NCBI GenBank assembly: GCA_003009755.1
Contig: PXUB01000030.1
Location: 1 to 64,000, forward strand
DNA: 64,000 bases
Reading direction: 5' to 3'
Source of the DNA: Thermoplasmatales archaeon SW_10_69_26
GTDB taxonomy: Archaea; Thermoplasmatota; SW-10-69-26
This document shows, piece after piece, positions 29,562 to 36,713 of the stretch. Under the pieces are notes generated by a model. The model saw only the letters and a program-made list of their open reading frames with translations, ran no database searches and had not been told where the DNA came from. A program made the translations under genes and the position numbers. Numbering within the stretch: the first letter of the stretch is position 1; each line of letters begins with the position of its first letter.

Positions 29562-30068
29562 ATGAAGCGTGTCCTCACCGCGACCGTCCTGGCGGCGCTC
29601 GTGGCCCTGATGGGCCTGACCCCAACCGTCGCCTCCGCCGCCGAGACCAGTTCCACGACCGAGATCACCCTCCGCGCCGCCCCCGCCGGCCCCGTCGTGC
29701 CCAGCGTGTTCTTCGTGAACAACGAGGCCCAGTGGATCCACGACCCCGCCGAGGACGGCTCGCTCGACGACATCGACGGCGTGGCCGGTTGCCAGCTGTC
29801 CGTCACCGACGCGAACGGCAACGGCGCCGTCGACGGCGCCGACGTCCTCGACCGCGCCGAGGCGACCGGCTGCATCACCAGCTGGGACGGCCGCGACGAC
29901 GCCAGTTGCACCGACGGCACCCCCGTCTTCGTCGCCGAGGTCGACGGCCTCGAGGAGGTCTTCCCCGCCACGTTCTGGGCCCTGCACCTCAACGGGCAGG
30001 CCGCCAGCGTCGGCGTCTGCGACCTCGCCCTCCAGGACGGCGACTCGCTCGGCTTCGTCTACGAGTGA
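29562..30068 (+). CDS. Secreted DUF4430 (transcobalamin beta-domain-like) protein
   Basis: Signal peptide; FVAEVDGL...FWALHLNG..ASVGV..L.L.DGD.L.FVY. Confidence 0.8.
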   Translation: MKRVLTATVLAALVALMGLTPTVASAAETSSTTEITLRAAPAGPVVPSVFFVNNEAQWIHDPAEDGSLDDIDGVAGCQLSVTDANGNGAVDGADVLDRAEATGCITSWDGRDDASCTDGTPVFVAEVDGLEEVFPATFWALHLNGQAASVGVCDLALQDGDSLGFVYE

Positions 30069-30070
30069 CG

Positions 30071-32617
30071 ATGCGGCTCGCCTCGGTCGCGGTCCCCTTG
30101 GCTCTGCTCGCCCTCGCGGGGACAGCCGCAGCCTCGCACGCTCCTTTGTCGATCCCCCAGATAGCCGACGACGACCCCGTCGATCCCGCGTTACAGCGGC
30201 TGGCGGGCAACGTCTCCGCCGACGGCTGCGTCGACCAAGAGGGCTGCGTGACCGAGAAGACGAAGTGGGTCGCCACCACGGCGGCCCACCTGGGCGTCGA
30301 TCCCAACGACTGGCCCGCCGACGGGGCCGCGATCGGCGGCTGGCTGCGCGCCAACGCCGACGACCTGGCCGACGAGCGGATGACGAACTGCCACGAGGAC
30401 GAGAACCGCTCCCGCAGCGACTGCGCTCACCTGCGCGTGTTCAGCCGCGTCAAATCGATCCTCGCTTTCGAAGCCCTCGGCGAGGACGCCCGCAAGGTCC
30501 CCACGCCCGACGGTGGCCAACGCGACCTCGTGGCCGAGCTCCTGGAAGAGCACGACGGCAGCGAGTTCGGCCGCTCGGACTTGGCCAACGACGACGTCTG
30601 GGCGCTGATCGCCCTCAACGACGCCGGCTACGACGGGCCCGAGGTCGACGACGCCATCGACCGCATCGAGAGGGCCCAATCCGTCGACGGCGGCGTACCT
30701 CACGGCGAAGGCTCGCTGGCCACCGTCGACGTGACCGCCTCGGCCATCATGGCGTTGGCTGCCCACGACCGCACCGACACGATCGAGGCCGCGCTCGGCT
30801 ACCTCGCCGACGAACGGATCGACGAGGGTGTCCGACGCGCCTGCTGGCCGCTCTCCTCAGCGTTCGGGGGCGACCCCAACGTCGAGAGCACCGCCCGCGT
30901 CGTCCAGGCCCTGCGAGCCGCCGGCGAGGACCCGCTCGCCTGGGGCGTCGACGGCCAGACGCCGACCGAGTGCCTGCTCACGTTCCAGACCGGATCGGGC
31001 GATTTCAAGCACGCCGGGAACAGCCGGACCACGATCATGTCGACCCAACAGGCGCTGGGCGGGCTCTCATGGCGGCCCTGGGGCACCCTCGAGGGCCCGG
31101 CCGAGCCCCTGACCGTCACCGACGAGGCCACCGTCGGCGAGGAGCACACCGCCACCGTGCCCGACGCGCAGCTGCGACTCGGCACCGACGCCACCGCTCA
31201 GCACACCTGGACGCCCGAGGAACCCGGCCAGAGCGTCTTCCACGGCTTCACCAGCGACCACCGCCCGCTCGAGCTCGTCGTCGACGTGCAGGAGGCCTCC
31301 GACGACGGCGCGAGCAGCTCCTCGACATCCTCGTCGGGCTCGTCCAGCCCCGACGACGACGGCTCCACCGGATCCACCGAGGGATCGGCCCCCACGGCCC
31401 ACCTCGAAGCGCCCGCTCGGGCCGAGCGCAACGTCACCCTCACGGTGAACGTCAGTGCCGACCCCGCCCAAGCCGCCGTCACCGGGTTCCGCCTCGAGAT
31501 CCCTGGCTACACCTCCACCGACTGGCGGCCCAACGGAAGCTTCCAGGTCACGCTCACCGACCTCGGCGAACACGCCCTCCGAGCGTGGGCTCGCGATGCC
31601 GACGGCCACGTCTCCGACCCCGCCGAAGCCACGATTACCGCCCGGGACGCCCAGCCCCGCCTGTCCCTCGAGGGTCCCACCGTCGTGAACCGCTCGACCC
31701 GGGCGACCCTCACCGCCCACGCCCACGACCCCGACGGACCGACCCCGAACGTCACCTGGACCGGCCCCGGGGGCGACCACCAGCAGGGCGCCCAGGCCAC
31801 CATCTCGTTCGCAGATCCGGGCCGACACGCGGTCCACGCCCAGGCCCGCGACGAGGCCAACAACACTGCCAACGCGACCTGGACCGTGCACGCCCGCAAC
31901 CGAGCCCCGACGAACCTCACCGTCACCCCAGCCGGGCTCGAAGCCAACACGACCGCCGTCCTCGAGGCCGACGCCATCGACCCCGACGGTGACGCCATCG
32001 AGATCGCCTGGCGTCTGGCCGACGAAGACGAGCCCTCATCCTGGGGCGGCCAACGCCACCTCGAGACCGGTCCGCCCGGCGAACGCGAACTCGTCGTCAA
32101 CGTCTCGGACGCCCACGGCGGCTGGACGCGGGCCCGCCTAAAACTGCCCGTCCGCGAACAACCTGGCGACGAGCCCCGCTCGCCGATCACCAACCTGACC
32201 ACCGACGCCCCCACACCCGACCCCTCGCCGGCCCTGGCCACCGAGTCCGACCCGGCCACCGTCTCCCTCCCCGATCGGATCACCCTGCCCGCCAACACCA
32301 GCCGCGTGCTGCACCTCGAGGCCCACAGCCCGACCCAGGACGTCGTGAACGTCACCGTCCGACTCGAGGAGTCCCTGCCCGTCCGCGGCACAGACGAAGC
32401 GAGGGCCCTGATCCCCGAGCTTTCGCCGGGCACCTACGAGCTCACCGCCCGCGCCGCCGACCCCGCCGGCTGGGGTCCCTGGACGAACGCGACCCTCGTC
32501 GTCGAACCCACCCCCCGGGAACCGATCGAACCCACCCGCTCGACCCCGGCCGAGACCTCGCTCGGGCTCGTTGCCACGCTGGTCGCGCTGCTCCTCGCCG
32601 GGAGGCGACGACCGTGA
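30071..32617 (+). CDS. Surface protein: prenyltransferase-like alpha6/alpha6 barrel, Ig/PKD stalk and C-terminal anchor
   Basis: NDDVWALIAL, QSVDGG, VDVTASAIMAL, NVESTARVVQAL, LLTFQ..SGDF, MSTQQAL; DPDG-type Ig repeats; TM plus RRR. Confidence 0.8.
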   Translation: MRLASVAVPLALLALAGTAAASHAPLSIPQIADDDPVDPALQRLAGNVSADGCVDQEGCVTEKTKWVATTAAHLGVDPNDWPADGAAIGGWLRANADDLADERMTNCHEDENRSRSDCAHLRVFSRVKSILAFEALGEDARKVPTPDGGQRDLVAELLEEHDGSEFGRSDLANDDVWALIALNDAGYDGPEVDDAIDRIERAQSVDGGVPHGEGSLATVDVTASAIMALAAHDRTDTIEAALGYLADERIDEGVRRACWPLSSAFGGDPNVESTARVVQALRAAGEDPLAWGVDGQTPTECLLTFQTGSGDFKHAGNSRTTIMSTQQALGGLSWRPWGTLEGPAEPLTVTDEATVGEEHTATVPDAQLRLGTDATAQHTWTPEEPGQSVFHGFTSDHRPLELVVDVQEASDDGASSSSTSSSGSSSPDDDGSTGSTEGSAPTAHLEAPARAERNVTLTVNVSADPAQAAVTGFRLEIPGYTSTDWRPNGSFQVTLTDLGEHALRAWARDADGHVSDPAEATITARDAQPRLSLEGPTVVNRSTRATLTAHAHDPDGPTPNVTWTGPGGDHQQGAQATISFADPGRHAVHAQARDEANNTANATWTVHARNRAPTNLTVTPAGLEANTTAVLEADAIDPDGDAIEIAWRLADEDEPSSWGGQRHLETGPPGERELVVNVSDAHGGWTRARLKLPVREQPGDEPRSPITNLTTDAPTPDPSPALATESDPATVSLPDRITLPANTSRVLHLEAHSPTQDVVNVTVRLEESLPVRGTDEARALIPELSPGTYELTARAADPAGWGPWTNATLVVEPTPREPIEPTRSTPAETSLGLVATLVALLLAGRRRP

Positions 32618-33360
32618 GCACGGCCCGCCTGGCCCTGACGATCGCGCTCGCCACCCTCGTTCTGGCCCCCGGCTGCATCACGTTCGACGGTGAGGCCGAG
32701 ATCCAAGCCCGCGTCCTCGTCACCGAGGACGTGGGCACCCAGCCCCTCCACGACGAGAACCTCACCCTCCGTCAGGGCGCCTCGGCCATGGACGCGCTGC
32801 GCCAGGTCGCCCAGACCGAGACCAGCCACGGCGGCGGCTTCGTCGAAGCCATCGACGGCAAGGCCAGCCAGTACCCGGACGAGAAGGTCGACTGGTTCTA
32901 CCACGTGAACACGAAGCTGGCCGGCGTCGGCGCCGCCCAGTACACCCTCGAGGACGGTGACGCGGTCGTCTTCGACTACCGCCACTGGGAGCGCACCATG
33001 CACCTCCCGCACCTGCTCACCGGGCTCGACGACTGGCCCGCCGACCTCACCGAGCCCCGCTTCGACCGCGAGGCTTTCACCGAGCGCCAGAACGACGCGG
33101 ACCAGCGCGCGAACCTCTACGCCCACGTCAACGGCACCTCCGTCACCGTCCTCGATCCCACAGGCGAGCCCGCTCGCACGCTCGAGGCGCCCTGGCTGCT
33201 CGCCCACGCCGTCGCCGGTCCCACCGACCAACCCCGCGTCCTGCTCGTCGCCAGCGGGGATGCCGGCCGCGCCCTCGTCGACGAGCTCGCCCAGACCCGA
33301 CCCACCGGGGTCGGCGCCGTCGTCACCCCCAACGCCACCCAGGAGGTGCCCGCCGGATGA
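32614..33360 (+). CDS. DUF4430 lipoprotein
   Basis: LAPGC lipobox; SAMDAL, GGGFVEAIDG, DWFYHVN, VGAAQYTLEDGD...FDYRHW. Confidence 0.85.
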   Translation: MSTARLALTIALATLVLAPGCITFDGEAEIQARVLVTEDVGTQPLHDENLTLRQGASAMDALRQVAQTETSHGGGFVEAIDGKASQYPDEKVDWFYHVNTKLAGVGAAQYTLEDGDAVVFDYRHWERTMHLPHLLTGLDDWPADLTEPRFDREAFTERQNDADQRANLYAHVNGTSVTVLDPTGEPARTLEAPWLLAHAVAGPTDQPRVLLVASGDAGRALVDELAQTRPTGVGAVVTPNATQEVPAG

Positions 33361-34190
33361 AGCTCGGCTCGGCCAACGCCCTCCGATTGACCGCCGGCGT
33401 GGCCCTCGCCGCCACCGCGATGCTTCTCACGCATCCCGCCTCCGTCGTCGCCAGCCTCCTACTGGCGCTCGTGCTCGCCTGGCGCGTGGATCTCTTCGCC
33501 CGAGCCCGCGCGCTCGCCGTCGCCGCGGGCACGATCGGACTCGCCGTCCTCGCCTTAAACGCCGCCTTCGCCTGGCAAGGCGCGAGGGTCCTCTGGGAAG
33601 CCCCGTTCCGCATCACCTGGCTGGGCCGACCCCGGCTCACGCTCGAGGCGATGGCCTGGGGCGCCACGGCCGGCGTCCAGCTGACCACCACCGTGCTCGC
33701 CCTCGCCGCCGCCACCGTCGCCGTCCCCCCCGAGGCCCTCAACCGCGCCATGGAGCGGCTGGGCCTGCCACCCAGCCTGGCCCGCGCCGGCGGCCTGGCC
33801 CTGCGCCTGGTCCCCGACACGGCTCAGGATGCCCGCTCCATGCGCGAGGCCCTGCGGACCCGCGGCGTCGACACGTCCACGATCCGCGGCGCCACGCAGA
33901 CCCTCGTCCCGCTGACCGCCCGCTCGCTCGACCGCGCCGCCGTCGCCGAGGAGGCCCTGCTCGTGCGCGGCTACGACGCCGACGACCGCCGCACCGGCTG
34001 GCCGCCGGCCGCCTACCTCGCCCTCGCCGCCGCCACCGTCGCCGGCCTCGTCGCCTTCCTCGGCCCGGGGCGGCCGAGCTTCTACCCCACCGTGAGCCTC
34101 CCGCTCGATCCCGCCAGCCTCGCCCTCGTCGGCCTCGCGCTGGCGATCCCCGTGTTCCTCGTCGGGAGGGTGCCCCGATGCTCGAACTAG
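33357..34190 (+). CDS. ECF transporter transmembrane component T
   Basis: Multi-TM; LRLVP, ALRTRG and ALLVRGY xRG motifs. Confidence 0.88.
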   Translation: MKLGSANALRLTAGVALAATAMLLTHPASVVASLLLALVLAWRVDLFARARALAVAAGTIGLAVLALNAAFAWQGARVLWEAPFRITWLGRPRLTLEAMAWGATAGVQLTTTVLALAAATVAVPPEALNRAMERLGLPPSLARAGGLALRLVPDTAQDARSMREALRTRGVDTSTIRGATQTLVPLTARSLDRAAVAEEALLVRGYDADDRRTGWPPAAYLALAAATVAGLVAFLGPGRPSFYPTVSLPLDPASLALVGLALAIPVFLVGRVPRCSN

Positions 34191-35482
34191 GCGACCTTCG
34201 CTTCGCCCACCACGGCCGCGAGCCCGTCGTCGACGGGTTCGATCTCGCCGTGCCCGCCGGCGAAACCCACCTGCTCGAGGGCCCCTCCGGCTCCGGCAAA
34301 TCCACCCTGCTGCGCATCGCCGCCGGCCTCATCCCCCGCATCCAGGGCGGCCGCATCGCCGGCCAGGCCCGCCTCGGGGGGCGACCTGTCAGGCAGATCC
34401 CGCCCGCCGAGATGCCCGAGACGATCGGCTGGGTGCCCCAGGACCCCGAGGAGAGCTTCGCCGCCCGCACCGTCGACCGCGAGCTCGCCCAGCTGGCGCG
34501 CAACCTCGACCTCGCCGACCCCCGCGCCGCGATCGATCGCGCCCTCGCGGTCCTCGACGCCGCGCACCTCGTCGACCGCGAGATCGAGCAGCTCTCCGGC
34601 GGCGAAGCGGCCCGCGTGAGCCTCGCCGCCGCCGGCCTCGGTTCGCCCCAGGCCCTCGTCCTCGACGAGCCCACCGCCCAACTGGACTCCGAGGGCCGCA
34701 AGCGAGCCCGCGCCTGGATCGACGACCACCGCGCCCGCGGCGCCAGCGTGCTCGCCGCCGAGCACGCTCCCCACCCCCTCGACCCCGACCGGGTTCACCG
34801 CCTGGGGGCCGGAGCCGAGCCCGACCCGGCCACGTGGCTGCCCGAGGCGCCCCGAGGCCCCGCACAGGCCCGCCTCGACGGCGCCACTGCCTGCTTCGAC
34901 GACGCTCGCGTGGGCCCACTGGACCTGGCCGTCCATCCTGGGGAGGTCGTCTGCCTGACCGGTCCCAACGGCGCCGGCAAGACGACCGCGCTCCACCTGC
35001 TGTGCGGGCTCGAGGAACCCGACCGCGGCCAGGCGCGCCTGGGCGAACACCGACCGGCCGATCTCTCGGCCGAACAGCTGGCCCGCTCGGTCGGCATCGC
35101 CTTCCAACACCCCGCCTGGCACATCACCCAAGACACCGTCCGCCAGGAGGTCGCCCTCACCGCCGACACCCTCGAGATCGCCCTGGCCCCGCAGGAAAAG
35201 CTAACGCGCCTGGGCCTGGCCGGTTACGCCGAGGAACACCCCTGGGATCTCTCCGGCGGCGAACGCCAACGCCTGGCCGTCGCCACCGCCAGCGCCCACG
35301 ACCCCCCGGTCCTGCTGCTCGACGAACCGACCCGCGGGCTCGATCGAGCCAGTCTCGGCGACCTCGCCGACCTGCTGGCCGCCCGCGTCGAAGCCGGCGC
35401 CGCCACGATCGTCGCCAGCCACCACTCCTGGATGCACGAGCTCGCCCACCGCACCGTCCCGCTCGAGGGAGGGTCCGCGTGA
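34178..35482 (+). CDS. ECF transporter ATPase, fused A-A'
   Basis: Two ABC domains: GPSGSGKS/LSGGE/LDEP and GPNGAGKT/LSGGE/LDEPTRGLD. Confidence 0.92.
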   Translation: MLELGDLRFAHHGREPVVDGFDLAVPAGETHLLEGPSGSGKSTLLRIAAGLIPRIQGGRIAGQARLGGRPVRQIPPAEMPETIGWVPQDPEESFAARTVDRELAQLARNLDLADPRAAIDRALAVLDAAHLVDREIEQLSGGEAARVSLAAAGLGSPQALVLDEPTAQLDSEGRKRARAWIDDHRARGASVLAAEHAPHPLDPDRVHRLGAGAEPDPATWLPEAPRGPAQARLDGATACFDDARVGPLDLAVHPGEVVCLTGPNGAGKTTALHLLCGLEEPDRGQARLGEHRPADLSAEQLARSVGIAFQHPAWHITQDTVRQEVALTADTLEIALAPQEKLTRLGLAGYAEEHPWDLSGGERQRLAVATASAHDPPVLLLDEPTRGLDRASLGDLADLLAARVEAGAATIVASHHSWMHELAHRTVPLEGGSA

Positions 35483-36030
35483 GCCGGCTGCACCGCGTCG
35501 CGCTCGGCGCCACGATCGGGACGCTGGCCGCTCTCTCCCGCATCCCCTTCGCCGTCATCCCCAACGTCCAGCCCGCCTCGGCCCTCGTCATCCTCGCCGG
35601 CGCCGTGCTCGGCTGGCGCGTGGGCCTGTTGGCCGGCGTCGTCGTCCCGCTCGTCTCCAACGCCGTGCTCGGCCACGGGCCCTGGACCCTCTTCCAGGCG
35701 ATCGGCTGGGGCGGCATGGGCGCCCTCGCTGCCCTGCTCGGCGACCGACCGCGGCGCTGGCCGCTGGCCGCCTTCGGCATCGTGGCGGGCCTCGCCTACG
35801 GCGTCCTCATGGACGCCTGGGTCTGGCTGGCCGGCGTCCGCCCGCTGGCCTGGCGCACCCTGTTGCCCGTGCTGGCCCGCGGGGTCCCGATGAACCTCGC
35901 CCACGCCGGCGGCAACGCCCTCATCCTGTGGATCGTCGGCCCGCGGCTGGCGACCCTGTTCCGCCGCGCCCGCAACCGTCGACGCGTGGTCGCCTTCGAC
36001 GCCGACCCCGACGACGTGGAGGTCTCCTGA
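35479..36030 (+). CDS. ECF S component, CbrT-like (cobalamin candidate)
   Basis: RIPFAVIPNVQP; SNAVLGHGPWTLFQAIGWG; AHAGGN. Confidence 0.85.
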   Translation: MSRLHRVALGATIGTLAALSRIPFAVIPNVQPASALVILAGAVLGWRVGLLAGVVVPLVSNAVLGHGPWTLFQAIGWGGMGALAALLGDRPRRWPLAAFGIVAGLAYGVLMDAWVWLAGVRPLAWRTLLPVLARGVPMNLAHAGGNALILWIVGPRLATLFRRARNRRRVVAFDADPDDVEVS

Positions 36031-36713
36031 TGGCCCTCGTGCCGACCACCGACGAACCCGATCGCGACCGGCCGTCGCCGCGAGCGCCCGCCCGTCTCCC
36101 CGCCGAGGGACGCCGCGGCCTCCGGCAGGCCCTCGAGGACGCGCTCGGCCGATCGGCCGACCGGGTGCTGTTGGCGGGGACCGTGACCGACGCCATCGCC
36201 GCCCTCGGTGCCGGGCTGTGGACGCCCGCCCACGCCACCCCATCCCTACCGAGGGCGCCCAGGCCCGGCTGGGTCGGGGACGAGCTGGGCCTCACCTTGC
36301 ACGCCATCCCCTCCTGGCATCTCGCGGAGGGCCGAGCCGTCGCCGACGAGGAGCTGGTCGACCCTTCGCCGCGCCGACGGGAACGAGCCGCGCGCTTGGC
36401 CGCGGCCGCCGCTGGGGCCCGCCGCCACGGCGCCCGGACGGTGCTCGCCGGCGCCGGAGCCGCCCCGATCCACGCCGCTGGCCTCACCCTGGACCAGGCC
36501 CGCGCCTGCATCGAGCGCTACGATCTCGAGCTCGTCACCCCGCTTGCCGACCCAACCGTCCAGACCCGCCTTCACGAGGCGGCGGTCGCCTCGGCCCGCT
36601 GGCTGGGTCTCTCGTGGCCGGCATGGCCGCTGCGGGAAGCCATGGTCGACCACCTGGGCGCACGGCTGGCGTGGCCGAGGGCCGGCCTGGGCCAAGCTGG
36701 GCCTGGAAAGTGA
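36030..36713 (+). CDS. Degenerate asparagine-synthase-like (N-type ATP pyrophosphatase fold) protein
   Basis: VLLAGTVTD (~LSGGLDS), TVLAGAGA (~VLSGEGAD), LELVTPLAD (~LEVRVPFLD), WPLREAM (~KWLLREA); TGATG-coupled to the S component. Confidence 0.55.
   Translation: MALVPTTDEPDRDRPSPRAPARLPAEGRRGLRQALEDALGRSADRVLLAGTVTDAIAALGAGLWTPAHATPSLPRAPRPGWVGDELGLTLHAIPSWHLAEGRAVADEELVDPSPRRRERAARLAAAAAGARRHGARTVLAGAGAAPIHAAGLTLDQARACIERYDLELVTPLADPTVQTRLHEAAVASARWLGLSWPAWPLREAMVDHLGARLAWPRAGLGQAGPGK

Follow-up and report, generated by a model that had tools for sequence, protein, structure and literature searches.

The genes at positions 29562-36713 of the window, a stretch of 64,000 nucleotides from contig PXUB01000030.1 of Thermoplasmatales archaeon SW_10_69_26 (the host), probably encode a dedicated energy-coupling factor (ECF) importer for corrinoids (cobamides), whose extracellular capture stage is made from the two halves of the transcobalamin fold. 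Seven open reading frames, A to G, lie on the forward strand without internal stops and with a GC content at third codon positions (GC3) of 0.86-0.97. A and B are separated by a gap of 2 base pairs (bp), and the other junctions are overlaps of 4 bp (B-C, C-D and E-F), 13 bp (D-E) and 1 bp (F-G). The open frames, the GC3 values and these junctions confirmed that the genes are tightly coupled, as stated in a preliminary description of this DNA, and the families that it had given to A-F (DUF4430, barrel with stalk, lipoprotein, EcfT, EcfAA' and S component) were borne out by Pfam, a fold model and motifs. The conserved unit consists of the six genes A-F, and G lies outside it.

29562..30068, + strand: gene A, secreted 168-amino-acid (aa) DUF4430/transcobalamin-beta-like (SLBB) protein (Pfam, family profile, alignment, hydropathy)
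30071..32617, + strand: gene B, 848-aa surface protein with signal peptide, alpha6/alpha6 barrel, Ser-rich linker, immunoglobulin (Ig)/PKD stalk and C-terminal hydrophobic-plus-Arg anchor
30131..31105, + strand: barrel of B (residues 21-345), putative half of the transcobalamin-alpha type (AlphaFold2, fold comparison, motif scans)
31676..31879, + strand: best-scoring PKD domain of the B stalk (residues 536-603; PF00801, E 9.7e-12)
32549..32614, + strand: hydrophobic segment with Arg cluster at the C-terminus of B, either a membrane anchor or an archaeosortase-like signal (hydropathy, homologue C-termini)
32614..33360, + strand: gene C, 248-aa predicted lipoprotein (Cys21) with an N-terminal DUF4430/transcobalamin-beta domain and a further C-terminal domain (PF14478, fold comparison, alignment)
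33357..34190, + strand: gene D, EcfT/CbiQ-family membrane subunit (PF02361, hydropathy)
34178..35482, + strand: gene E, fused EcfA-EcfA' ATPase (PF00005 twice, motif scan)
35479..36030, + strand: gene F, CbrT-like ECF S component (PF12822, 6FNP match)
36030..36713, + strand: gene G, 227-aa conserved hypothetical protein with a weak asparagine-synthase/adenine-nucleotide-hydrolase (AANH)-like signal (profile and fold searches)

A complete ECF module with a CbrT-like S component

Genes D and E form a complete energy-coupling module. The D product matches the CbiQ/EcfT family (PF02361, E 3.4e-16) and has five hydrophobic segments, and the E product contains two ABC_tran stretches (PF00005), both of which carry Walker A, LSGGE, Walker B and H-loop motifs. 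The F product belongs to the ECF S components (PF12822, E 1.3e-7). Its only significant match in the PDB, in agreement with the CbrT-like S component described earlier, was 6FNP (E 5.8e-9), an entry titled 'Membrane protein' that we take to be ECF-CbrT. An S component from a relative labelled Thermoplasmatales is 71% identical to F. CbrT is reported to be an ATP-dependent transporter of cobalamin and cobinamide with which hemin does not compete (PMC5997447).

Two beta-domain proteins and an alpha/alpha barrel on separate chains

The N-terminal domain of the predicted lipoprotein C (lipobox-like Cys21) gave the strongest link to the B12 binders. C matches DUF4430 (PF14478, E 1.8e-14), and when its modelled beta domain was compared with 48,161 chains the top five were haptocorrin, transcobalamin beta, bovine transcobalamin, 3U7Z and intrinsic factor, with Z between 11.4 and 13.2 and the next fold at 7.6. 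The superposition on haptocorrin (Z 13.2) had a root-mean-square deviation (rmsd) of 1.8 over 94 aligned residues. As modelled, the first domain of C is clearly of the transcobalamin-beta type. Profile and fold searches with its C-terminal domain gave no family or fold assignment.

Protein A carries a DUF4430 domain as well (PF14478, E 6.4e-6), and comparison of the A and C profiles gave a probability of 95%. Matches of the A family profile in the PDB were weak (3U7Z, E 6e-4; haptocorrin, E 0.028; transcobalamin beta, E 0.16). A has a signal peptide, with neither a lipobox nor a C-terminal anchor detected by hydropathy, and two Cys residues are invariant in the alignment of its family. Residues of about 80-96 (29799-29850) form an Asp/Gly-rich loop that is present in A and its closest homologues and absent from more distant members of the class; it resembles a calcium-binding motif of the Dx[DN]xDG kind.

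The other half of the fold is found in B. Its residues 21-345 were modelled by AlphaFold2 as a confident alpha/alpha barrel (predicted local distance difference test score, pLDDT, 96.5). The best fold match was the single-domain cyclase 8PAJ (Z 23.9, rmsd 3.2, 273 aligned), followed by a second single-domain squalene-hopene cyclase (Z 23.8); intrinsic factor 2PMV scored Z 19.0 (rmsd 3.0, 233 aligned), and transcobalamin and haptocorrin Z 17.8 each. On these model comparisons, the fold of B is not diagnostic of function. The barrel shares the alpha6/alpha6 fold of the transcobalamin family, but cyclases ranked first, and the Foldseek top 50, mostly cyclases and prenyltransferases, held no B12 binder.

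The tie between the barrel family and the B12 binders appears to be indirect, and runs through homologues. Domains were scanned in the 88 shorter of 150 listed homologues: at least 23 of the 88 carry DUF4430 in the same chain as the barrel, 21 of them in the alpha-then-beta order of transcobalamin, and six match PF01122, three above the cut-off. One of the proteins that match PF01122, P0141, is 32% identical to B across the PF01122 stretch. Together with the beta fold of C and the profile of A, these fusions and PF01122 matches upheld the earlier proposal that transcobalamin-like alpha and beta halves are encoded on separate chains.

Behind the barrel, B continues into a stalk with PKD domains. 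The membrane anchor described earlier was found at the C-terminal end of B as a short hydrophobic segment with an Arg cluster, which are kept in close homologues. The assignment can be refined to a possible archaeosortase-type signal, which we presume from the resemblance of this end; an exosortase-family gene is present in the host, and the PGF-CTERM model in NCBIfam did not match B.

Conservation of the six-gene unit

Of 40 relatives, 13 had the barrel, all of them among the 20 that belong to the same class as the host, and a profile search added one more (L101). Scans of metagenome contigs with the barrel yielded no confirmed relatives. A separate A-type gene adjoins the barrel gene in 14 of 16 class loci, the exceptions being L028 and L031, where the genes after the barrel had been candidates for DUF4430, were not confirmed by Pfam or profiles and were counted as misses. 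The full order A-B-C-T-AA'-S recurs in L018, L019, L023 and L092. At five other loci (L020, L022, L027, L029 and L030), the A-B pair faces a convergent ECF operon with a second DUF4430 gene beyond it (weak in L022). A thus remains beside B, and kits with two beta proteins are common in the class. These neighbourhoods and the DUF4430-barrel fusions make A and B look like partners; a complex prediction for A with the barrel scored 0.02 against a mark of 0.32, which counts neither for nor against their pairing.

The same arrangement extends into bacteria. In the Dehalococcoidaceae, L094 and L095 repeat the order of A-F in six separate genes (for DUF4430, the barrel, a DUF4430 protein, T, AA' and S), and in a Bacillus locus the equivalents of A and B are fused, followed by a second DUF4430 protein, T, AA' and S. 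At the level of the phylum, DUF4430 occurs in 118 of 201 genomes, and the barrel was detected at one of 20 loci examined outside the class.

L092 lies on a contig labelled Balneolaceae. It has the same gene order and downstream genes as the host locus and an S component 69% identical to F, and is probably a misbinned archaeal contig. In L025 and L026, a short gene encoding only the barrel and an A-type gene form a convergent pair that stands by itself; no ECF genes were detected at either locus, and both genomes carry the full system elsewhere.

Genomic context and corrinoids

The class survey covered 21 genomes, the host and 20 relatives, only six of which are at least 90% complete with at most 5% contamination. 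Methylmalonyl-CoA mutase was found in all 21 and PduO in 19/21, and CobS and CobA/BtuR in 0/21 each. The host has two mutase genes and NrdJ, and no match to CobS was obtained in its genome, which is 95% complete. The host seems to need vitamin B12 and to be unable to make it, and the class appears auxotrophic for B12 throughout.

Homologous operons in bacteria accompany cobalamin functions. Barrel and ECF operons of two Chloroflexota lie directly downstream of cobalamin riboswitches (L104, 61.1 bits; L105, 101.6 bits), which were found at these two of eight bacterial loci tested. A homologue on a Lactobacillus plantarum plasmid (L041) comprises T, AA', S, barrel and DUF4430, is annotated CbrVUT and stands in a region with nrdJ, cobA, cobS and cblTS, a published cobalamin region (PMC6722938). 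Corrinoid uptake, as the preliminary description had it, is probable from the riboswitches at the two bacterial operons and the CbrT match.

A clamp and relay as the proposed mechanism

From this context and by analogy with the animal proteins, we infer that A and B form a clamp and that the ligand is relayed to the membrane. The beta domain would bind the corrinoid first and the barrel would then close over the ligand, so that the clamp would form only with ligand, as human transcobalamin (TC)-alpha and TC-beta do in vitro. Human TC-alpha and TC-beta, when isolated, come together only in the presence of cobalamin, TC-beta binds cobalamin by itself (PMC5599065), and intrinsic factor that has been cleaved still clamps cobalamin (PMC6257451). 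A would be the likelier cap for the barrel, because it regularly adjoins it, carries no anchor itself and corresponds in position to the domain that is fused to the barrel in the Bacillus operon, which keeps a second DUF4430 protein. The lipoprotein C would hold or pass the ligand near the membrane, and may be the likelier link to the membrane step since its gene is placed just before ecfT in the tandem loci. F would then bind the ligand at the membrane, and ATP hydrolysis by E would drive import through D. The order of hand-over is a hypothesis and the least supported step of this mechanism.

One competing explanation keeps the corrinoid importer and dispenses with the relay: the barrel would pair with C, as proposed for Lsa1839 and Lsa1840 of Lactobacillus (Latilactobacillus) sakei, or A and C would be independent low-affinity beta binders with B mainly a scaffold. 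We regard it as the less likely course, though one that carries real weight. The L. curvatus and L. plantarum operons each have one barrel and one DUF4430 protein only, DUF4430 genes stand next to ECF genes or an S gene with no barrel detected at four loci of the phylum (L072, L074, L083 and L090), and the binding of cobalamin by TC-beta alone is compatible with it. However, it is A and not C that is the constant neighbour of the barrel, even where the ECF genes and the second beta gene are on the other strand, and A, lacking an anchor, would need a partner in order not to be lost.

A bolder form of the relay was also considered, in which A is a released, unanchored B12 scavenger, the counterpart of a hemophore, that docks in loaded form on the stalked barrel, from which the ligand passes to C and then to the CbrT-like S component; such a three-step relay as the main B12 supply of the class is rather unlikely.

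Heme, another cofactor or an enzyme

Several results weigh against a corrinoid importer with a transcobalamin-like capture stage. As regards the barrel, cyclases and epimerases outrank the B12 binders in fold comparison, with intrinsic factor in 23rd place, the barrel profile retrieved no transcobalamin from the PDB and gave no direct sequence link, and B has no PF01122 match in Pfam. No cobalamin riboswitch was found in the window, at 13 other archaeal-type loci or at the other six bacterial loci, and no cobalamin genes were found among the neighbours scanned at other loci of the phylum. A second ABC importer of the host, BtuFCD/HmuTUV-like and encoded on contig C22, could supply B12. Finally, the only split system that has been tested, Lsa1836-1840 of L. 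sakei, is linked to heme: deletion of lsa1836-1840 lowered 57Fe-hemin uptake 5- to 8-fold at 5-40 uM, and B12 specificity is left open there (bioRxiv 10.1101/864751). The S component of L. curvatus, the presumed orthologue of the L. sakei protein, matches CbrT at E 3.3e-14, better than F does. Because the S component of this presumed heme-linked orthologue resembles CbrT even more closely, the likeness of F to CbrT does not settle the substrate.

These data bear above all on the possibility that the system imports heme, or heme together with corrinoids, with B12 supplied by the importer on C22. The deletion phenotype, the collinearity and homology of B-C-D-E-F with the L. curvatus operon and the second tetrapyrrole-type importer itself speak in its favour, and so does the gene content of the host, in which COX1 is present and no match to GlutR or ferrochelatase was found (in a genome that is 95% complete). 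The host may lack heme synthesis and need heme too, and a double auxotrophy for heme and B12 is possible. On the other side, six relatives with a GlutR match keep the barrel gene, which leans against a role in heme uptake only, and cobalamin riboswitches and cob genes accompany homologous operons. Hemin does not compete for CbrT in the published assays, and the L. sakei effect is reported only at micromolar heme. F did not group with the Lactobacillales/Bacillus clade in a tree of 19 S components; the backbone of this tree is unresolved and it came with long-branch warnings, so that it cannot separate heme from B12 types. Import of heme, with or without corrinoids, is the main rival to the corrinoid importer but quite unlikely.

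Less probable still is that the archaeal system takes up some other soluble cofactor, which was suggested in 2007 for archaea that make B12 (PMC1796856). The archaeal loci examined have no riboswitch or cob-gene context, as this explanation would have it, but the argument rested on B12-producing archaea, and here CobS was found in none of the 21 genomes and the mutase in all of them.

It is highly improbable that the barrel is an extracellular enzyme (a single-domain class II terpene cyclase, or a prenyltransferase-like or glycosidase-like protein) that is merely co-transcribed: its top folds are single-domain squalene-hopene cyclases, the barrel family profile matches cyclases at E 1e-47 and DxDDT occurs at one aligned site, not mapped to the cyclase active site, in 22 of 95 homologue rows, but DxDD, the catalytic motif of class II cyclases, does not occur in B, and none of the first 26 rows has it at that site. 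B is also exported and anchored away from the pools of prenyl diphosphates. Fusion of the barrel to DUF4430, or its placement beside DUF4430 and ECF genes, is seen repeatedly, and in two bacteria the barrel is headed by cobalamin riboswitches.

Gene G

The preliminary description had counted G, as a degenerate enzyme, among the genes of the system. G has 10 full-length homologues with 46-64% identity and itself no Pfam match; PF00733 was matched by two of 11 members of its family (best E 2.8e-5), and its model, of pLDDT 0.50, compared with asparagine-synthase and adenine-nucleotide-hydrolase folds at template modelling (TM) scores of 0.40-0.49. This weak asparagine-synthase-like signal fits a degenerate enzyme. 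The canonical PP-loop motif was not seen in the alignment of the family. Homeobox matches of the G profile (E 0.007-0.03) were treated as chance, and a scan of metagenome contigs with G gave no confirmed relatives. Membership in the system did not hold: G is not part of the conserved unit, because it was found in only one of the 21 class genomes, that of the host, and is missing after the S gene in L018, L019, L092 and L093, all of which keep the downstream Sm-like gene. As a gene, G is real and conserved; it is a lineage-restricted addition, translationally coupled to the operon but not part of the system.

G directly follows the CbrT-like gene, and occurs only in the one near-complete class genome that has no PduO match. 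PduO was found in 19 of the 20 class relatives and not in the host. A replacement of PduO by G was considered and set aside, since the genes that neighbour pduO also match the host only at the level of paralogues and an assembly gap explains the absence of PduO equally well. The position of G is that of pduO in L. delbrueckii, but it is very doubtful that G is a cobalamin-activating enzyme of a new type.

Regulators and variant architectures

A scan of the region for promoters and terminators gave nothing above chance, and an archaeal RNase P RNA is present in the window. In many class relatives, a gene for a winged helix-turn-helix (HTH) protein with DUF7839 heads or adjoins the ECF genes (L020:15219-16061, L022, L027, L028, L029, L030 and L031), and such a gene is found near DUF4430 or ECF genes in two other loci (L074 and L103). 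The protein is a candidate for a regulator that stands in for a riboswitch. The host homologue is on contig C23 and is unlinked. At L077:8427-8960, an ArsR-type HTH is fused to DUF4430 and divergent from a pair of DUF4430 and S genes; one-component regulators of this type are mentioned in PMC1796856.

In loci L078, L082, L087, L088 and L090 of the phylum, DUF4430 is fused to or placed beside a PQQ-type beta-propeller, which replaces the alpha barrel before T-AA'-S (L088 was assigned by profile and size only). A propeller gene is also present in the BtuFCD/HmuTUV-like operon of the host (L098:5404-7038). L104:3467-6181 of the Chloroflexota encodes two tandem barrel domains under the cobalamin riboswitch, and no DUF4430 was detected in its 18-kb locus. 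The protein at L041:7506-8558 on the L. plantarum plasmid, annotated 'fucose-binding lectin II', matches the barrel profile at E 2.8e-13, and its annotation is probably wrong.

Relation to known systems

The closest published counterpart is Lsa1836-1840 of L. sakei, in which separate exported alpha-like and beta-like proteins, EcfT, a fused AA' and an S component are encoded in one operon. Lsa1839 and Lsa1840 were modelled there as separate beta and alpha transcobalamin-like proteins that clamp the ligand and hand it to the S component (bioRxiv 10.1101/864751). Our comparison was made through the L. curvatus operon L040, which was taken as the orthologue from gene order and a nearby Dyp peroxidase gene, and not from L. 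sakei sequences. L040 has the order of B-C-D-E-F, matches the barrel profile at E 1.2e-32 and encodes an S component 32% identical to F. The archaeal locus differs in having the second, unanchored beta protein A, in carrying the barrel on an Ig/PKD stalk with an archaeal-type anchor, where L. sakei has MucBP/LPXTG, and in its archaeal host. The data on L. sakei favour heme.

Burroughs et al. (2007; PMC1796856) described a transcobalamin-like SLBB clade with toroid-beta fusions, Ig fusions, second beta paralogues, CbiO/CbiQ operons and archaeal members, for which B12 scavenging was predicted. The locus shares with it the beta-grasp domain, the alpha/alpha toroid, the link to Ig domains, the second beta protein, CbiO/CbiQ-like genes and an archaeal host. 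In the part of that work available, however, toroid and beta domain are fused, whereas they are separate genes here, and those archaea are said to be B12 makers in many cases, whereas the class of the host has no CobS match. The Dehalococcoidaceae loci L094 and L095, on which no paper came to our notice, share the order of six separate genes; they differ in being bacterial, in their A equivalent, which has 529 aa and a CARDB domain, and in stalks of the CARDB type.

ECF-CbrT of L. delbrueckii is related through F, and NrdJ is present in the host. In L. delbrueckii, cbrT lies in an nrdJ-cbrS-cbrT-pduO cluster, FolT2 uses the same ECF module and the purified complex needs no surface helpers for transport (PMC5997447), whereas the locus described here has its own T and AA' and encodes three surface proteins. 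Animal transcobalamin, intrinsic factor and haptocorrin resemble the archaeal proteins in the folds of the beta domain (Z 11.4-13.2) and the barrel (Z 17.8-19.0), and their split halves can assemble on cobalamin in vitro (PMC5599065, PMC6257451). They differ in being single-chain, soluble and taken up through receptors, and B lacks the direct PF01122 match.

The preliminary description had placed any novelty in the split relay and the archaeal host. This has to be given up: a split clamp with hand-over had been put forward for L. sakei, archaeal members and a second beta protein have been on record since 2007, and the gene order occurs in the Dehalococcoidaceae. The split design is not new, and the locus adds one more member to a kind that is known from bacteria. 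In the limited body of papers searched, none was found on a fully split form with two beta proteins or on this archaeal lineage, and no B12-binding test of prokaryotic transcobalamin-like proteins turned up. Passages from PMC2667541, PMC2211319, PMC3766115 and PMC4350170 contributed nothing about such systems.

As a discovery the locus is incremental, and its value lies mainly in being a tractable test case. Its halves are small and can be expressed separately, and the lineage appears to depend on B12 that it does not make itself; for this lineage the caveat of 2007, that the archaeal members belong to B12 producers, is removed. It would make a clean case for deciding between B12 and heme, for the use of extracellular binding proteins by ECF transporters, and for the question of whether animal transcobalamin arose from alpha and beta genes that were once separate.

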